Positions 27,654 to 64,000 of a DNA stretch of 64,000 nt are shown piece by piece. The notes beneath the pieces were generated by a model. The model ran no database searches. It saw only the letters and a list, made by a program, of their open reading frames with translations, and was not told the origin of the DNA. Positions within the stretch are counted from its first letter, which is position 1, and every line of letters begins with the position of its first letter. Source of the stretch: Candidatus Omnitrophota bacterium (GTDB lineage Bacteria; Omnitrophota; Gorgyraeia; Zapsychrales; Fredricksoniimonadaceae). Location of the stretch: positions 90,761 through 154,760 of the forward strand of contig CAIVRE010000002.1 of NCBI GenBank assembly GCA_903908245.1, given 5' to 3'. Position numbers and translations under genes: made by a program.

Positions 27654-29135
27654 TCAAATCATTCGCCGGAAAAGGACCCAATGTTCACTGACGAACATGG
27701 GCGTCCACATTATTCCAAGGCGGGAAAGATCCTGGTCCCCCCAGTTCCGTCCCCATAAGTAATAACGGGTCTTCGCGTCCCCGAGGATCGCCCCGACCGT
27801 AGGCGTAAAAATAAAATCCTTGTACCCTTTGCCGTAAAGGGCATTCACCTGGCTGACGATCGCGTTGCACGGTTCGATCGCATTGCCCCGGACGACCGCG
27901 CCCGACTCAAGTTCATGTTCAAAAAGGGCATTGGTCGCCATCCACTTCATCAGGTTCGCCGTATCATATTGATAGGTGGAATGGAATTTCAGGACCGTAG
28001 CGCTGACGACCAGGACAAAAACAAACGACCCTGCGGCGAGCACGGCGAACGAAGGCAGGGGTAACGCCTCCACCCTTTCCGCCAGTAAAACAGCGAGCAC
28101 AAACGCAAAGAAAAAACCAAACGGAAGGACATAATACCCCCAGACAGCCCAGGGAAGAAGGACCAGCAGATATCCCGCGTAAGCCAGGGCTCCCGTTAAA
28201 AATACCCACAGCCTCGCGCGGGTCCACGGGCGGGAAACAGCTCCTTTCTGAAACACCATCAGGACAACAGCCAACAGGATCCAGGGCGCGTGATACAACA
28301 GGTCTTTTTGCGCCCACAACAACACATTCTGTCCAATAGCGCTGAAATTCGTGACCACATAGACCGAAGTATACTCGCTCCTGCTAAAGAAATTATTCAG
28401 GAACACTGCATAGGCCGCGGCAACCAAAAGGCAGGCGACCCCGAACACCAGGACCCCTTTCTTTCGGTCGAGAAGAGACACAATGATCGAACTTGCCCCC
28501 ACAGCCCCCATAGTCGCAAGAAATGGTTCTTTGGAACCGACGGTTAACAACAGGAAAAAGATCCCTGCCGCCATTGCCCCCCAACGGATCGTCCCGCCAT
28601 TGTCCAGCCTCTGCTCAAACGCATTCAGAAAAAACAAAAGAGCAAACCCGAAGAACAGGACACCGAGGATCTCGTGCGTGGAAAGGTAAAAGAAAGCATC
28701 GTAAATCTGGCAAAAAGACAATACCGCAAAAACAAAAAGCGGCGCAGCAAAATGACTGCGCGTAACCCGGAAAGCCAGAAAGGCCCATACCCCCAATGCC
28801 AGGACACACTCGGCCCAACGGAAAATATAGAATGCGGCCGGACTGCTGGCAAAGACCTTATAAAAGACCGCAGAATGCAATGCCAGAGTGGGGCGGATAT
28901 ACCCGGAGGCCATCCAGGCCTGGCAAAACCCTGTAAACCTTTCCCACCAATTGCCGGGCTGTTTAAGCATGCCGAAATCGTCCATCAAACCCCAGGACCA
29001 TCCGCCTAAGACAAAAGAGACCAGGATCACGGCCAAAGGCACGAACGCCAGGATCAGCCACCCATGCGCCGACGACATATTGCACTTTCCGGAATTATTT
29101 TGATCCATCGCACCCTCCCAGGGATTGCTTGCCAA
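27654..29135 (-). CDS. polytopic membrane protein (possible GT-C-like glycosyltransferase or polymerase), unknown family
   Basis: 493 aa with at least 10 hydrophobic helices. It is the first gene of the glycan locus and overlaps the next gene by about 40 bp. Confidence 0.5.
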   Translation of the reverse strand: MASNPWEGAMDQNNSGKCNMSSAHGWLILAFVPLAVILVSFVLGGWSWGLMDDFGMLKQPGNWWERFTGFCQAWMASGYIRPTLALHSAVFYKVFASSPAAFYIFRWAECVLALGVWAFLAFRVTRSHFAAPLFVFAVLSFCQIYDAFFYLSTHEILGVLFFGFALLFFLNAFEQRLDNGGTIRWGAMAAGIFFLLLTVGSKEPFLATMGAVGASSIIVSLLDRKKGVLVFGVACLLVAAAYAVFLNNFFSRSEYTSVYVVTNFSAIGQNVLLWAQKDLLYHAPWILLAVVLMVFQKGAVSRPWTRARLWVFLTGALAYAGYLLVLLPWAVWGYYVLPFGFFFAFVLAVLLAERVEALPLPSFAVLAAGSFVFVLVVSATVLKFHSTYQYDTANLMKWMATNALFEHELESGAVVRGNAIEPCNAIVSQVNALYGKGYKDFIFTPTVGAILGDAKTRYYLWGRNWGDQDLSRLGIMWTPMFVSEHWVLFRRMI

Positions 29136-30348
29136 ACGCCGCCATAGCTCCGGTCAAAACCCAGAATATGGCGGTCAATTGAGACGAATAAAGCGTCGTA
29201 TCCAGGCCGCTGTGCACCAAAAACCCGCACCAGCCGGCAAAAAAAGCGGCCAGCAGCCAGCGCTCCGGCGCTTGCGGCAAGCGCCGGATCAAAAACGACA
29301 CCTGAACAATGATCGCGGTCAGGAACCACAAGAATAAAGCCAACCCGACCAGCCCGAGCTCCGCCCCCATTTGCAAATAACAATTATGGGGATAGATCGC
29401 CCACATGGTCACATATTTCTTGATCACCATTGTGTATGTATTAAGCCCTGTTCCAAGGACAGGGTTGTCTTTAATGATATTGATCGCGTCATGCCAGAAC
29501 GTGAGCCTCCCGTTCCCGTTAAACGACAGGATCTTCTCCTGTTCCATCACCGCGTCCGAAACAAGGGACACATCGCGGACCTTGAGGAGCAACGGCTGAA
29601 AAACCACAATGAACAGGGCCATGAACGCCAAGACCACCGGCCAAAAACGGCGGTTAAAAAGAATAAAAACAACCACCGCGACCACCATTCCCAGCCAGGC
29701 GCCCCTGGAATAGGTCAGGCCCAGCGCCGCTGAGGCTATCCCCACAAAAAAGATCCCTCCAAAGGCCAGCAAAGCGTTCTTGAGCGTATATTCGATCAAC
29801 GAACGGGCGCCGGCCATGATCATGAGCATGATCGCGGGCAAAAGAACAAGGATCAAATACGCCCCAAAATCATTAGGATGCTTGAACGACGCCATCACAC
29901 GGCCGCTGTTGAACGTGGCGCGCACAAAAATATCATACCCCGAGAACGCCTGCCAGAGCCCGTCGAGAGAAATGATCCCCGCCGAGACCAGAAAAACACC
30001 TATCAAAATACCATAGCGTTTACGGGAAGAAAGCGTTTCATAACTTATAAAGAACAAGAACATGGCATAAAGAGATTTACCGATAAAACCCTTAAGGCTT
30101 AACAAAGGGAACTGGCTCCAAATGATGGAAAGGCCAGACCATCCGAAATATAATACTGCGGGAAGGAGCACCCACTTGACCGGGAGCTCCCTGAAAGCCG
30201 CCCACCCCAAGGAACCACGCTTAAAGAAAAAAACCAGGATAGCGACCGACGCGGCCACCTTGACAAAAGCATTCGTAGCCGGGAGAAAGAACATCATCAG
30301 ACAAAGCAGGACGAACAGGATACGGTCACACAACAGGGTCATTGTCAT
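29095..30348 (-). CDS. O-antigen ligase / Wzy_C-family membrane protein
   Basis: 417 aa. Wzy_C hallmarks YSRGAWLGMVVAVVVF and PHNCYLQMGAELGLVGLALF. Confidence 0.75.
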   Translation of the reverse strand: MTMTLLCDRILFVLLCLMMFFLPATNAFVKVAASVAILVFFFKRGSLGWAAFRELPVKWVLLPAVLYFGWSGLSIIWSQFPLLSLKGFIGKSLYAMFLFFISYETLSSRKRYGILIGVFLVSAGIISLDGLWQAFSGYDIFVRATFNSGRVMASFKHPNDFGAYLILVLLPAIMLMIMAGARSLIEYTLKNALLAFGGIFFVGIASAALGLTYSRGAWLGMVVAVVVFILFNRRFWPVVLAFMALFIVVFQPLLLKVRDVSLVSDAVMEQEKILSFNGNGRLTFWHDAINIIKDNPVLGTGLNTYTMVIKKYVTMWAIYPHNCYLQMGAELGLVGLALFLWFLTAIIVQVSFLIRRLPQAPERWLLAAFFAGWCGFLVHSGLDTTLYSSQLTAIFWVLTGAMAAFGKQSLGGCDGSK

Positions 30349-62590: not shown

Positions 62591-63748
62591 TTATCTTAGA
62601 TTAAACAGATGTAAATATTTCCAGATCCGGGGGATCGCCAAGGCTATCAGCAGCAACAAAAAGATCCTTTGGATCACCCATGACCGGCTTGATTCCATAA
62701 GCCGTACCAAAACAAACGTTGACACAATGATCCCGACAGGAGCAAGAAAAATAAAATGCCGGCCATCCATAAGATAGCCCGCGCCGGGCCCTGCTTTTAT
62801 CTTAAAAATAAGCAACATCATCATAGCGGCCATCAACATCATCCCGGGATAAAATACAGCCCCCAATCGACAAGCCTCCTTGCGCCAAAGATAAATACCT
62901 GCCGCTCCAACCAATAACAACCGCTCGATCGGAAAATTGGCTGTAATCAACTTCCACGGAGCATCAGGAAAAGTAACAGGGAATTTGGGTGTCTGATTAT
63001 AATAATAGAAACAAATAAAAACCGGGATCATTGCCATCATTACAAGATCCCTCTTCTTCCCGTACCCAAAAAGAAGAAACAACCCGGAAACCCACACGAT
63101 CTGAACAATGCTTCCTGGGGCGGCAAATGCCAACAGGATATGCGTAAGGATCAGTCCGCGAAGACTTCTCGATCTTTGTGAAGAATCCTGACAAGACAGT
63201 ACAAGAAAGGATTGAACCGTCGTCAGAAGAAATAATAACGAATACGGCCGCGCTTCAGCCCAAAAAGACCAGACCATGAACGTCGACATTGTCATCAGCC
63301 AGGCACACAGCCCTGCCCATAACGCCACATTGATCGAAAAATAATAAAAGATCAACGCGATGGCCAATGACATCCAAACCACAGGGCTGATCCGCAGGAT
63401 CAACTGCGCTTTCTGATCCACATATGTCCCGGAAGCCACCACCCCCTTCGGGATCTCATAGCCAAAAACCTGGCCTGCGAACTTCTGGACCAAATAATAA
63501 AAAGGGCCATTATTCCCTTCGCTCACCCGCCCTTCGATAAGATCAAGATAACCATGCCCTCCAATAGTCGATACTTGTGAATATACTTCGTCATTCCATA
63601 AGGATTTATTTCGGGCCAAAGACAATCCAACCCAACAAGAAAACAAGAAAACCAACATCGCAAGAAAGAGATATAACTGTTTCATCATGCCCTCCCAAAT
63701 AACGCAACCGTTAATGCGATCCGGATCAAAAGCATAGCTACCCATCAA
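62591..63748 (-). CDS. GT-C-fold membrane glycosyltransferase partner, second copy
   Basis: 385 aa, polytopic. Has an N-terminal SLWNDEVYSQ, the same W-x-DE-x-Y loop motif as the gene at 40566. Confidence 0.55.
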   Translation of the reverse strand: MMGSYAFDPDRINGCVIWEGMMKQLYLFLAMLVFLFSCWVGLSLARNKSLWNDEVYSQVSTIGGHGYLDLIEGRVSEGNNGPFYYLVQKFAGQVFGYEIPKGVVASGTYVDQKAQLILRISPVVWMSLAIALIFYYFSINVALWAGLCAWLMTMSTFMVWSFWAEARPYSLLFLLTTVQSFLVLSCQDSSQRSRSLRGLILTHILLAFAAPGSIVQIVWVSGLFLLFGYGKKRDLVMMAMIPVFICFYYYNQTPKFPVTFPDAPWKLITANFPIERLLLVGAAGIYLWRKEACRLGAVFYPGMMLMAAMMMLLIFKIKAGPGAGYLMDGRHFIFLAPVGIIVSTFVLVRLMESSRSWVIQRIFLLLLIALAIPRIWKYLHLFNLR

Positions 63749-64000
63749 GATTTATAACTTTTCCATCTAACCCGTAAACAGTACAACTAAAACCTTTTTC
63801 CCATAAGAAACCACTATTAAAAATATCCATATTATTAGAAAGGACATCTTGAACGGGATGATGATCTTTGGAGAAATAGGCATCTTTCCAATAATTACTC
63901 TTTATTCCCTCAAGCTGCCTTGGCGAATACTCGAAAAAAACAATACGACCAGCGATCACCACACAAAACCACCGATGCATGCCTTTAGCCCAGGAAAATA
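63738..64000 (-). CDS. hypothetical protein, 5'-partial (N-terminus lies beyond the window end)
   Basis: The frame is open from 64000 down to the stop at 63738 (...FSWAKGMHRWFCVVIAGRIVFFEYSPRQLEG...). The track's Met at 63980 is probably internal. Confidence 0.4.
   Translation of the reverse strand, partial: FSWAKGMHRWFCVVIAGRIVFFEYSPRQLEGIKSNYWKDAYFSKDHHPVQDVLSNNMDIFNSGFLWEKGFSCTVYGLDGKVINLDG

Follow-up and report, generated by a model that had tools for sequence, protein, structure and literature searches.

The 64,000-nucleotide stretch of DNA analysed here (positions 90,761 to 154,760 of contig CAIVRE010000002.1, assembly GCA_903908245.1; hereafter the window) derives from a Candidatus Omnitrophota bacterium and carries, from position 27654 to position 64000 on the minus strand, an array of glycan biosynthesis genes whose components were listed using Pfam and NCBIfam. 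The Omnitrophota are uncultured and for the most part ultra-small, and they are thought to be predators of other cells or to attach to them. Glycans go unmentioned in the main genomic survey of this phylum (PMC10066038). Lipopolysaccharide (LPS) genes and hypervariable polysaccharide cassettes have been reported in Omnitrophota (bioRxiv 10.64898/2026.05.20.726742), and O-antigen ligase genes have been described in recent preprints; no description of this particular locus was found in the searchable Omnitrophota literature. An original prediction, made from the letters of the window, had listed an initiating sugar-phosphate transferase, a glycosyltransferase (GT) of family GT26, gmd and fcl, at least 10 transferases of the GT-A or GT-B type, 4 methyltransferase domains, 2 left-handed beta-helix (LbH) acyltransferases and 2 epimerases. 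All of these are present according to Pfam and NCBIfam; the list was incomplete in that three DUF4143/AAA_14 genes were missed and three GT-C-like polytopic proteins were counted in place of five (62591 and 40566 have been added). Genes are named below by their lower coordinate in the window.

The array begins next to pgk, and two features define how its ends are to be read:

27623-27650 (-): promoter-like sigma-70 consensus, TTGACA-16-TATAAT, 12/12 match, in the pgk-side gap
63738..64000 (-): S-adenosylmethionine (SAM) methyltransferase, C-terminal 87 codons of 230 aa, start beyond the window edge

At the low-coordinate end, a gap of 72 nt separates gene 27654 from pgk, and the perfect sigma-70 site before pgk marks a real downstream boundary of the locus. 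Past the gap lie pgk, tpiA, secG and then an opp-type ATP-binding cassette (ABC) importer. The high-coordinate end of the window is not a boundary: the reading frame is open to the edge, and the final 263 bases belong to the C-terminal part of a methyltransferase gene, which is found complete in L009 (1873-2565; Methyltransf_23/31/11/25). At least 11 kb of further array are present beyond this edge on a 500-kb contig of ERZ1426827, which represents the same population, and the locus therefore spans at least 47 kb; as predicted, it is co-directional, on the minus strand throughout, and runs off the window. Reading away from the window, the extension encodes a 595-aa protein, two more methyltransferases, a B12/radical-SAM enzyme and an M28/DUF4910 protein, followed by PIG-L, a formyltransferase-C-like protein, GNAT, NeuB+SAF and an AP_endonuc_2 protein; the set that contains NeuB looks like a nonulosonic-acid module. 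Intergenic gaps within the locus are mostly shorter than 30 nt or are replaced by overlaps, and several start codons give genes shorter than the longest open reading frame (ORF), for example 62591-63745, 44277-46262, 39796-40569 and 27654-29108. The GC content is 52-55% in the core and flanks and 43-50% above approximately 36 kb, where the composition shifts.

Besides the 34487 gene, the core and the genes often found with it comprise those for an initiating transferase, a GT26, a GDP-sugar, two proteins of the Wzy_C type, a GT4 transferase and an epimerase:

32302..33720 (-): initiating polyprenyl glycosylphosphotransferase (PGT) of the WbaP/WcaJ type (Bac_transf 228 bits, plus CoA_binding_3)
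33717..34463 (-): WecG/TagA/CpsF-family protein, GT26 (Pfam 194 bits; TIGR00696 153 bits, cut-off 69)
31283..32302 (-): GDP-mannose 4,6-dehydratase, gmd (TIGR01472 553 bits, cut-off 415)
30348..31286 (-): GDP-L-fucose-synthase-like reductase/epimerase, fcl-like (NF047922 291 bits, under the 500-bit equivalog cut-off)
29095..30348 (-): Wzy_C-family protein of ligase or polymerase type (Wzy_C 91 bits)
47937..49514 (-): Wzy_C-superfamily polytopic protein (Wzy_C 29.5 bits, under the Pfam cut-off of 31.7)
43042..44151 (-): GT4, conserved core gene (Pfam; BLAST-defined GT4 in 23 of 31 related loci)
37337..38377 (-): NAD-dependent sugar epimerase/4,6-dehydratase (Epimerase 168 bits)

The PGT scores 414.5 bits on TIGR03025 (cut-off 295.6). 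The GDP-fucose of the original prediction stands in part: gmd is above its cut-off, and because the fcl-like gene scores below its equivalog cut-off, GDP-fucose is a probable rather than a certain product of the pair. Two proteins of the O-antigen ligase family had also been expected. Of these, 29095 is a strong Wzy_C match, with additional matches to IctB, PEP_O_lig_1 and RfaL that each fall under their own cut-offs, and it has homologues in 20/31 related loci. The second, 47937, matches RfaL at E 3.7e-5, is joined by hhalign (92.7%) to a family of related loci whose representative passes the Wzy_C cut-off, and has homologues in 22/31 of these loci. Both are accordingly treated as Wzy_C members, which at the level of sequence may equally be polymerases, ligases or O-oligosaccharyltransferases. 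The epimerase 37337 has counterparts that are 85% identical in the related contig L049 and 65% identical in L013, with only matches at the level of short-chain dehydrogenases/reductases (~27%) in L051 and L052.

Eight polytopic proteins are encoded in the locus, five of which are GT-C-like:

27654..29108 (-): 484-aa predicted GT-C-fold glycosyltransferase of a new, rare family (AlphaFold model and Foldseek)
44277..46262 (-): 661-aa predicted GT-C-fold glycosyltransferase of a new family without a Pfam model (AF2 model and PDB matches)
34487..36028 (-): 513-aa polytopic protein, founder of a phylum-wide family without a Pfam model (profile comparison)
40566..41651 (-): 361-aa polytopic GT-C candidate (PMT_2 E 1.3e-4, 22.7 bits, below the cut-off of 26.1)
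62591..63745 (-): 384-aa polytopic protein, GT-C candidate (motif only; exact 384-aa gene call on record)

Together with the Wzy_C proteins, the window thus encodes 7 proteins of the GT-C, GT-C-like and Wzy_C kinds. When the polytopic proteins were compared with Pfam (E <= 10) and NCBIfam (E <= 1), only weak matches to PMT_2, Wzy_C and LIC_10190 were obtained, and sequence-only searches of the PDB with the same proteins and their family profiles gave no meaningful match. The AF2 model of 27654, the family of which has 26 homologues among 5.8 billion proteins, is confident (pLDDT 86.8, pTM 0.87), and its best PDB matches are ArnT (5f15; E 1.6e-4, TM 0.49), DPY19 and three STT3 entries, with a Foldseek probability of 1.00. 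Pmt4 ranks eighth, just under one non-GT-C match of probability 0.14, and other transporter folds reach a probability of at most 0.16 each. A motif, W.WGLMDD, is invariant in this family right behind the first transmembrane helix (TM1), with D44 invariant and D43 nearly so. In GT-C enzymes, the catalytic acidic motif is expected right after the first helix, and the acidic residues of the 27654 family appear to lie at this expected position. The family of 44277 has 15 homologues, the named ones all from Omnitrophica. Its AF2 model (pLDDT 79, pTM 0.83) finds ArnT, AftA, AglB and Pmt1/2 among its top seven PDB matches (Foldseek probability 0.95-1.00), compared with a probability of 0.06 for MurJ and WzxE, and D140 and E141 are nearly invariant. 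By their predicted structures, 27654 and 44277 have the GT-C fold, and they would probably be active as glycosyltransferases.

The remaining three proteins were assessed by profiles and motifs. The only family match of 34487 is to the NCBIfam model LIC_10190_fam (34 bits, below the 100-bit cut-off). Its own family is large, with 448 representatives at E <= 1e-3, and a Pfam scan of 42 close and 29 distant members returned no family; one member is named 'RgtA/B/C/D-like' in UniRef, a name that Pfam did not reproduce. The loops of this family contain many invariant polar residues, including an invariant QE.D..NYH loop, a pattern that suggests an enzyme and not a transporter. When deepened, the 34487 profile aligns with the membrane half at the C-terminus of the 44277 family (hhalign 88%, E 3e-6, 231 columns) and with a family of 636-aa proteins (hhalign 94%, 416 columns), which adjoins 34487-like genes in 16/31 related loci and includes one member with a weak PMT_2 match. 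From these comparisons, 34487 is probably related to GT-C enzymes. Protein 40566 carries the motif LWGDEIY behind TM1, and 62591, for which no Pfam or NCBIfam family was found, has PLWNDE(V/I/L)(Y/F) at the same place, kept in two homologues that lie directly upstream of 34487-family genes. The two proteins share LW(G/N)DE(I/V)Y after the first helix and are regarded as GT-C candidates; hhalign comparisons of both with all local families, including the PMT_2-positive one, were uninformative.

Three of these polytopic genes lie directly beside GT2 genes of a particular kind, listed here with 49505, the GT2 used as a control:

61874..62578 (-): GT2 resembling polyprenyl-phosphate sugar synthases (Pfam GT2; PDB and NCBIfam matches)
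39796..40569 (-): GT2 resembling polyprenyl-phosphate sugar synthases (best PDB match DPMS, E 4e-16, then ArnC and GtrB)
46279..47943 (-): fusion of GT2, a GtrA/DPMS-type domain of four transmembrane helices (4-TM) and a SAM methyltransferase (Pfam)
49505..50308 (-): GT2 of the ordinary Leloir, glycan-acceptor type (GT2 98 bits)

The only PDB matches of 61874 are DPMS (5mlz, E 1.9e-9) and three ArnC chains, and its NCBIfam matches are AglJ, a dolichyl-P-hexose transferase and PpgS, all under their cut-offs. For 39796, the NCBIfam matches are ArnC, AglJ and PpgS, likewise below the equivalog cut-offs. The fusion protein 46279 combines GtrA_DPMS_TM (43.9 bits, above the Pfam cut-off), GT2 (35.4 bits) and Methyltransf_25 (32.1 bits) and matches PpgS in NCBIfam with E 3.5e-12. 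Protein 49505 served as a control: its best PDB matches are chondroitin synthase and similar glycan-acceptor GT2s, with DPMS in 13th place. Unlike this control, 39796, 61874 and 46279 resemble polyprenyl-phosphate monosaccharide synthases, an activity that they may well possess. The adjacent pairs are 61874/62591, 46279/44277 and 39796/40566; 16 nt lie between 44277 and 46279, and 40566 overlaps 39796 by 4 nt. Relatives show the same pairing: in L013, the homologue of 44277 has an unfused GT2 and an unfused methyltransferase beside it, and in L049, an orthologue of 39796 (82% identical) lies beside the epimerase and a 34487-like gene. Within the locus, the GtrA_DPMS_TM domain is confined to the 46279 fusion; a GtrA or MATE gene standing by itself was not found, and the intergenic gaps of the locus are too short to hide one. 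Three-component GT-C systems (Gtr, Arn, CsbB/YfhO and GT136) have been described (PMC11127046, PMC8035078), and by analogy with them a GT2 gene beside a GT-C gene is the genetic signature of extracytoplasmic glycosylation. The periplasmic decoration by GT-C enzymes that had been suggested for this locus is, with two GT-C folds and three synthase-like GT2s beside GT-C or GT-C-like genes, well supported.

Related loci were collected in two ways. Four Omnitrophota contigs with precomputed Pfam annotation (L013, L049, L051 and L052) were compared directly, and a scan of JGI metagenomes with the profile of the 34487 family yielded 80 further loci, in which ORFs were called and labelled by local hidden Markov models and BLAST; the remaining polytopic ORFs were clustered, and one representative of each of ten polytopic clusters was scanned against Pfam. 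Conservation was counted over those loci, 31 in number, in which the anchor gene is flanked on either side by 6 kb or more. Among these, Wzy_C is present in 28, WecG in 24, PGT and GT4 in 23 each and gmd in 18, and the number of polytopic proteins of at least 300 aa ranges from 2 to 6 per locus (median 4). The four annotated contigs share a Wzy_C-like protein, GT4, an epimerase, a 34487-like protein, WecG and PGT, and often have gmd, fcl and a second Wzy_C gene; the order in L013 is GT4, epimerase, 34487-like gene, the first two in direct succession. The locus is followed by pgk and tpiA in L049 and L051. The module gmd-fcl-Wzy_C-27654 is missing from L049 and is therefore accessory. A single base separates the window from the ENA metagenome contig BUCK21-1_SAMEA6872781 scaffold_41 (157 kb). 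With the exception of one hydrothermal-vent metagenome record, all named homologues of three locus-specific proteins come from Candidatus Omnitrophica/Omnitrophota metagenome-assembled genomes (MAGs); identity is 50-62% in the closest of them, and the pgk-tpiA-secG-opp synteny is repeated in one homologue-bearing Omnitrophota MAG. The comparison with relatives proposed in the original prediction, which covered the four contigs and the 31 loci, thus separates a conserved core (the 34487 family, WecG, PGT and Wzy_C, often with gmd and fcl, near pgk) from a remainder that is variable and of lower GC content.

Several proteins found in the course of this comparison are recorded here in their own right. 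L056 encodes an MBOAT O-acyltransferase (14400-15893), and L052 a 749-aa fusion of Wzy_C and Laminin_G_3 (19001-21250). Outside the array, the window encodes a 722-aa protein (17851-20019) with approximately 7 N-terminal membrane helices and C-terminal TPR repeats, beside a GlmU/GlgC-like nucleotidyltransferase; a 712-aa TPR protein occupies the matching position in L049, and the 722-aa protein might be a further enzyme of the envelope glycan. At 4710-7649, the window encodes a polytopic protein of 979 aa that contains an internal VIT domain.

The variable part of the locus is composed mainly of transferases and decorating enzymes, interrupted by ATPase genes:

60926..61870 (-): GT2/GNT-I-like glycosyltransferase (Pfam)
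60196..60945 (-): SAM methyltransferase (Methyltransf_25/11/31)
59620..60195 (-): LbH (hexapeptide) acyltransferase (Hexapep)
58728..59630 (-): SAM methyltransferase (Methyltransf_11/25/12)
57808..58731 (-): NAD-dependent sugar epimerase/dehydratase (Epimerase 126 bits; no equivalog above its cut-off)
56600..57838 (-): GT4 glycosyltransferase (Glycos_transf_1)
55749..56603 (-): GT2 glycosyltransferase (Pfam; 61% identical homologue in L013)
54819..55736 (-): 305-aa putative GT-A-like protein (no Pfam family; BLASTP E 1e-21 to 60926)
53872..54789 (-): 305-aa protein of no family (best match an FkbM methyltransferase, E 0.09, non-significant)
53224..53847 (-): LbH acyltransferase (Hexapep)
52043..53212 (-): GT4 glycosyltransferase (Pfam)
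51269..52015 (-): SAM methyltransferase (Methyltransf_24)
50313..51266 (-): 317-aa protein (no Pfam or NCBIfam family)
41680..42906 (-): DUF4143/AAA_14 ATPase (Pfam; 135-nt gap upstream)
38427..39737 (-): DUF4143/AAA_14 ATPase (Pfam)
36102..37262 (-): DUF4143/AAA_14 ATPase (Pfam)

Over the whole locus, six genes or domains belong to GT2 (61874, 60926, 55749, 49505, 46279 and 39796) and three genes to GT4 (56600, 52043 and 43042), and there are four SAM methyltransferase domains (60196, 58728, 51269 and the C-terminus of 46279) in addition to the fifth, cut by the window edge. The lowest GC content of the locus, 36%, is that of 53872. Paralogue pairs are formed by 60926 and 54819, by 59620 and 53224 (37% identity) and by 56600 and 52043 (35%), within a range of 25-37%; the block of GT-A-like, LbH and GT4 genes, present twice (52043-55736 and 56600-61870), is on these alignments apparently an ancient tandem duplication. 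The three DUF4143 paralogues are 25-35% identical. The widest intergenic gaps of the locus lie next to them, and two of the three bracket the GT-C-like/GT2 pair 40566/39796. No DUF4143 homologue was found in the four related loci L013, L049, L051 and L052, and a search for direct or inverted repeats around the genes gave nothing convincing. Judging from these gene comparisons, the three are probably insertions outside the pathway.

The 595-aa protein of the extension (L009:56-1843, 2.3 kb past the window end) is soluble and has no Pfam family. Its homologues in the genome collection, at no more than 45% identity, were found only in Burkholderiales, Nitrospira, cyanobacteria, Kofleriaceae and Bacteroidales; the 32 loci returned for it include none from Omnitrophota. 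Several independent assemblies break within approximately 60 nt upstream of its gene, which suggests a strain-variable junction. The lower GC content of the window above approximately 36 kb and the foreign-phylum homologues of this protein fit a laterally exchanged variable cassette.

The genes for export and chain-length control that would be expected beside such an array were sought throughout. No gene of the locus has a Pfam or NCBIfam match to Wzx/MOP, Wzz/PCP, Wza or Wzm/Wzt, and none of the eight polytopic proteins matches MOP, MurJ or MatE, even at E <= 10, which agrees with the earlier statement that no Wzx, Wzz or Wzc could be identified. The precomputed Pfam annotations of the 11 kb upstream contain no flippase, the upstream end of the locus not being reached within this distance. 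No match to Wzz, GNVR or PCP was obtained in the window, the upstream 11 kb or the four Pfam-annotated relatives, and neither MOP, ABC-exporter nor Wzz genes occur within 10 kb in those four contigs. In 31/31 related loci with sufficient flanks, no Wzx was recognisable. The sole Wzx in the 84 loci, with Polysacc_synt/MatE matches, is found in L100 (10018-11268), which has less flank on one side, and it serves as a positive control that the method detects Wzx when present; a phmmer search with it found no relative in the other loci or the window. The original prediction had proposed to check 27654, 34487 and 44277 against Wzx/MOP and GT-C families: none is an MOP protein, and 27654 and 44277 are GT-C by fold. 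The evidence from folds (GT-C, not MurJ or WzxE) and profiles led us to reject the possibility that there is a divergent Wzx among the three.

Other candidate transporters were also considered. There are no ABC genes within the locus, and no ABC exporter was seen in the 11 kb upstream. Elsewhere in the window (8505-10699), an ABC-2-type ATPase of 291 aa is encoded with a 440-aa membrane protein of approximately 13 helices and no Pfam family; as an exporter for the locus this pair was set aside, since it lies 17 kb away with housekeeping genes between and the models matched by its ATPase are all generic ABC-2 ones. L073 (777-2204) and L075 (4744-6171) encode a 475-aa protein without a Pfam match, for which 12 helices are predicted; it would fit a divergent flippase in size and helix count and has no homologue in the window. 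The flippase of the system would most likely be unlinked, for which Wzk of H. pylori provides a precedent (PMC2841628).

Taken together, we consider it somewhat better than an even chance that this is a composite locus for a lipid-linked surface glycan of the O-antigen or exopolysaccharide type, made up of a conserved core next to pgk and a strain-variable cassette of low GC content. The identities of the genes, the two GT-C folds, the side-by-side position of synthase-like and GT-C genes and the conservation come directly from the analysis; the substrates, the order of steps, the acceptor and the transporter are those that we infer. Synthesis would start with the WbaP/WcaJ-type PGT and the WecG/TagA-type GT26, which would together begin a polyprenyl-diphosphate-linked oligosaccharide, to be extended by the cytoplasmic GT2 and GT4 enzymes. 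Likely donors are a GDP-6-deoxyhexose, probably fucose, and a nonulosonic acid from the module just past the window, and the chain may be decorated by the methyltransferases and LbH acyltransferases. It would then be translocated by a transporter encoded outside the 47 kb seen, most likely unlinked, and the two Wzy_C proteins would polymerise the glycan, ligate it to an acceptor, or both. Three DPMS/ArnC/GtrB-like GT2s, one of them fused to a GtrA-type domain, would make polyprenyl-phosphate monosaccharides, from which the neighbouring GT-C enzymes would add sugars on the outer face of the membrane. Candidate acceptors are lipid A-core, protein or peptidoglycan.

Several observations weigh against this composite pathway. 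Neither a flippase nor a chain-length regulator or outer-membrane exporter could be found in the window, the upstream 11 kb and the 31 loci, and the translocation step of the model has no assigned gene. The three synthase assignments (39796, 61874 and 46279) all fall under the NCBIfam equivalog cut-offs, the TM-scores of the GT-C matches of 27654 and 44277 are moderate (0.30-0.49), and 34487, 40566 and 62591 are placed by profile and motif evidence.

An alternative is an assembly without Wzx, taking place mainly in the periplasm: a short lipid-linked primer would be made in the cytoplasm, a battery of GT-C enzymes (27654, 34487, 44277, the 636-aa family and others) would build most of the polymer outside from polyprenyl-phosphate sugars, as for mycobacterial arabinogalactan and lipoarabinomannan, and Wzy_C would ligate it. 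This reading accommodates the five GT-C or GT-C-like proteins and three synthase-like GT2s of the window, the median of 4 polytopic proteins of at least 300 aa in related loci, the count of 0/31 loci with Wzx in a survey in which Pfam detects one in L100, the presence of AftA among the best structural matches of 44277, and the highly conserved, enzyme-like loops of the 34487 family. We nevertheless regard it as unlikely, since even a primer needs translocation, which an ABC transporter accomplishes in mycobacteria, the approximately 10 cytoplasmic glycosyltransferases and many modifying enzymes argue for a substantial cytoplasmic repeat unit, and the flippase search covers only the window and 11 kb upstream of this genome. 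In its widest form, this would amount to an envelope glycan conserved across the phylum without an MOP flippase, the PGT/WecG primer being extended outside by unclassified GT-C families and finished by Wzy_C, which we hold to be doubtful; just as tentative is the proposal that these families are the 34487/LIC_10190-like, 636-aa, 27654 and 44277 families, fed by dedicated polyprenyl-phosphate synthases. Of the atypical assembly route that had been predicted, the periplasmic decoration stands, and a Wzx-free route is not established, given the precedent of an unlinked flippase in H. pylori. An ABC-transporter pathway encoded elsewhere (Wzm/Wzt or Wzk/PglK-like), in which the chain is made in the cytoplasm, perhaps capped by methyl groups, ligated by a WaaL-type enzyme and later decorated by GT-C proteins, is likewise unlikely. 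Methyl caps terminate chains in pathways of the E. coli O8/O9a type, and the many methyltransferases of the locus, together with the lack of both Wzx and Wzz, would suit such a pathway, as would the fucosylated O-antigen of H. pylori, which uses an unlinked Wzk and WaaL without Wzx, Wzy or Wzz (PMC2841628). Set against this, no ABC exporter is found in the locus or the related loci, the sole ABC pair of the window besides the opp-type importer is the distant and generic one at 8505-10699, and at least two Wzy_C proteins per locus exceed the need for a ligase only.

It is quite improbable that the locus serves general protein O-glycosylation, as the original prediction had suggested for protein glycosylation as an alternative, with a PglL-like Wzy_C protein, a PMT_2-like GT-C enzyme or both acting on surface proteins. 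Enzymes of the PglL type do belong to Wzy_C, PMT-type enzymes are among the structural matches, the Laminin_G_3 fusion of Wzy_C occurs in one related locus, and Omnitrophota encode very large surface proteins. However, a domain specific to PglL was not detected, neither acceptor proteins nor sequons are known, and a large, variable cassette of low GC content is more typical of polysaccharide antigens; the sequence does not discriminate this role from that of a ligase or polymerase. The three DUF4143 genes that interrupt the array, the change of composition at approximately 36 kb and the loss of the gmd-fcl-Wzy_C-27654 module from L049 could also be taken to mean that unrelated co-directional sets of glycan genes and mobile insertions have come together by chance. 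Co-direction alone proves little, because all long ORFs of the 64-kb window share the minus strand. The real argument against chance, which makes this explanation very improbable indeed, is the recurrence of the same gene order over dozens of divergent loci, to which the short or overlapping gene junctions may be added.

Under the composite-pathway reading, the locus defines a conserved envelope-glycan core for Omnitrophota, adds four polytopic families for which Pfam has no model (for two of them, structure prediction gives the GT-C fold), and is predicted to support an unusually dense glycosylation from lipid-linked donors. If a flippase is truly absent from the genome, the locus would offer a natural system for the Wzx-free membrane crossing of lipid-linked glycans; if an unlinked transporter serves it, it would still be a useful map of conserved and strain-variable surface genes in the phylum. 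Should the MOP-free reading be true, it would mean periplasmic polymerisation in the mycobacterial style in an ultra-small phylum that carries LPS genes.

Four known systems bear comparison with the locus. The WecA/Wzk/WaaL pathway of the H. pylori LPS O-antigen (PMC2841628) resembles it in a probable fucose glycan and in biosynthetic loci without Wzx and Wzz; its Wzy-less O-antigen uses a Wzy_C-family ligase and an unlinked flippase, and a Wzy_C protein is present here as well. It differs in its WecA-type initiator, its scattered genes and its lack of a GT-C battery, and no Wzk homologue was identified in our locus. Mycobacterial arabinogalactan and lipoarabinomannan synthesis, with Ppm1 or decaprenylphosphoryl arabinose (DPA) donors and the enzymes AftA-D, Emb and PimE, is similar in employing several GT-C enzymes fed by polyprenyl-phosphate sugars, and 44277 has AftA as one of its best structural matches. 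In contrast to the mycobacterial system, the present locus contains Wzy_C and belongs to a different phylum, reported to carry LPS genes, and no UbiA-type DPA synthase, galactofuranosyltransferases or linked ABC exporter were found in it. With the Wzx/Wzy-dependent clusters for O-antigen, enterobacterial common antigen (ECA) and capsule, the locus shares PGT, GT26 (WecG of ECA), many Leloir glycosyltransferases, sugar-nucleotide genes, Wzy_C-family proteins, low GC content and strain variability; unlike them, it has no Wzx or Wzz/PCP that could be found in 47 kb or 31 loci, contains several GT-C enzymes and has a conserved core that adjoins pgk across the phylum.

The closest parallel in gene arrangement is provided by the three-component systems, namely GtrA/GtrB/GtrC of Shigella and Salmonella, ArnC/ArnT, CsbB/GtcA/YfhO of Gram-positive bacteria and GT136 of Citrobacter youngae. 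In common with these, the locus has synthase-like GT2 genes beside GT-C or candidate GT-C genes and a GtrA/DPMS-type 4-TM domain (here in 46279), and the expected outcome would be the addition of sugars on the outer face after assembly. The differences are that at least three pairs, some of them candidates, and five GT-C-like proteins are gathered here in one chromosomal locus, that the pairs lie inside the main biosynthesis cluster rather than being phage-borne or a separate add-on, that two pairs are without a free-standing GtrA or MATE flippase, that one synthase-like GT2 is fused to a methyltransferase and that the GT-C families have no Pfam models. The parts of the locus are known machinery; what is new is their phylum-conserved arrangement by pgk, the density of GT-C and Wzy_C proteins and the four families that lie outside Pfam.

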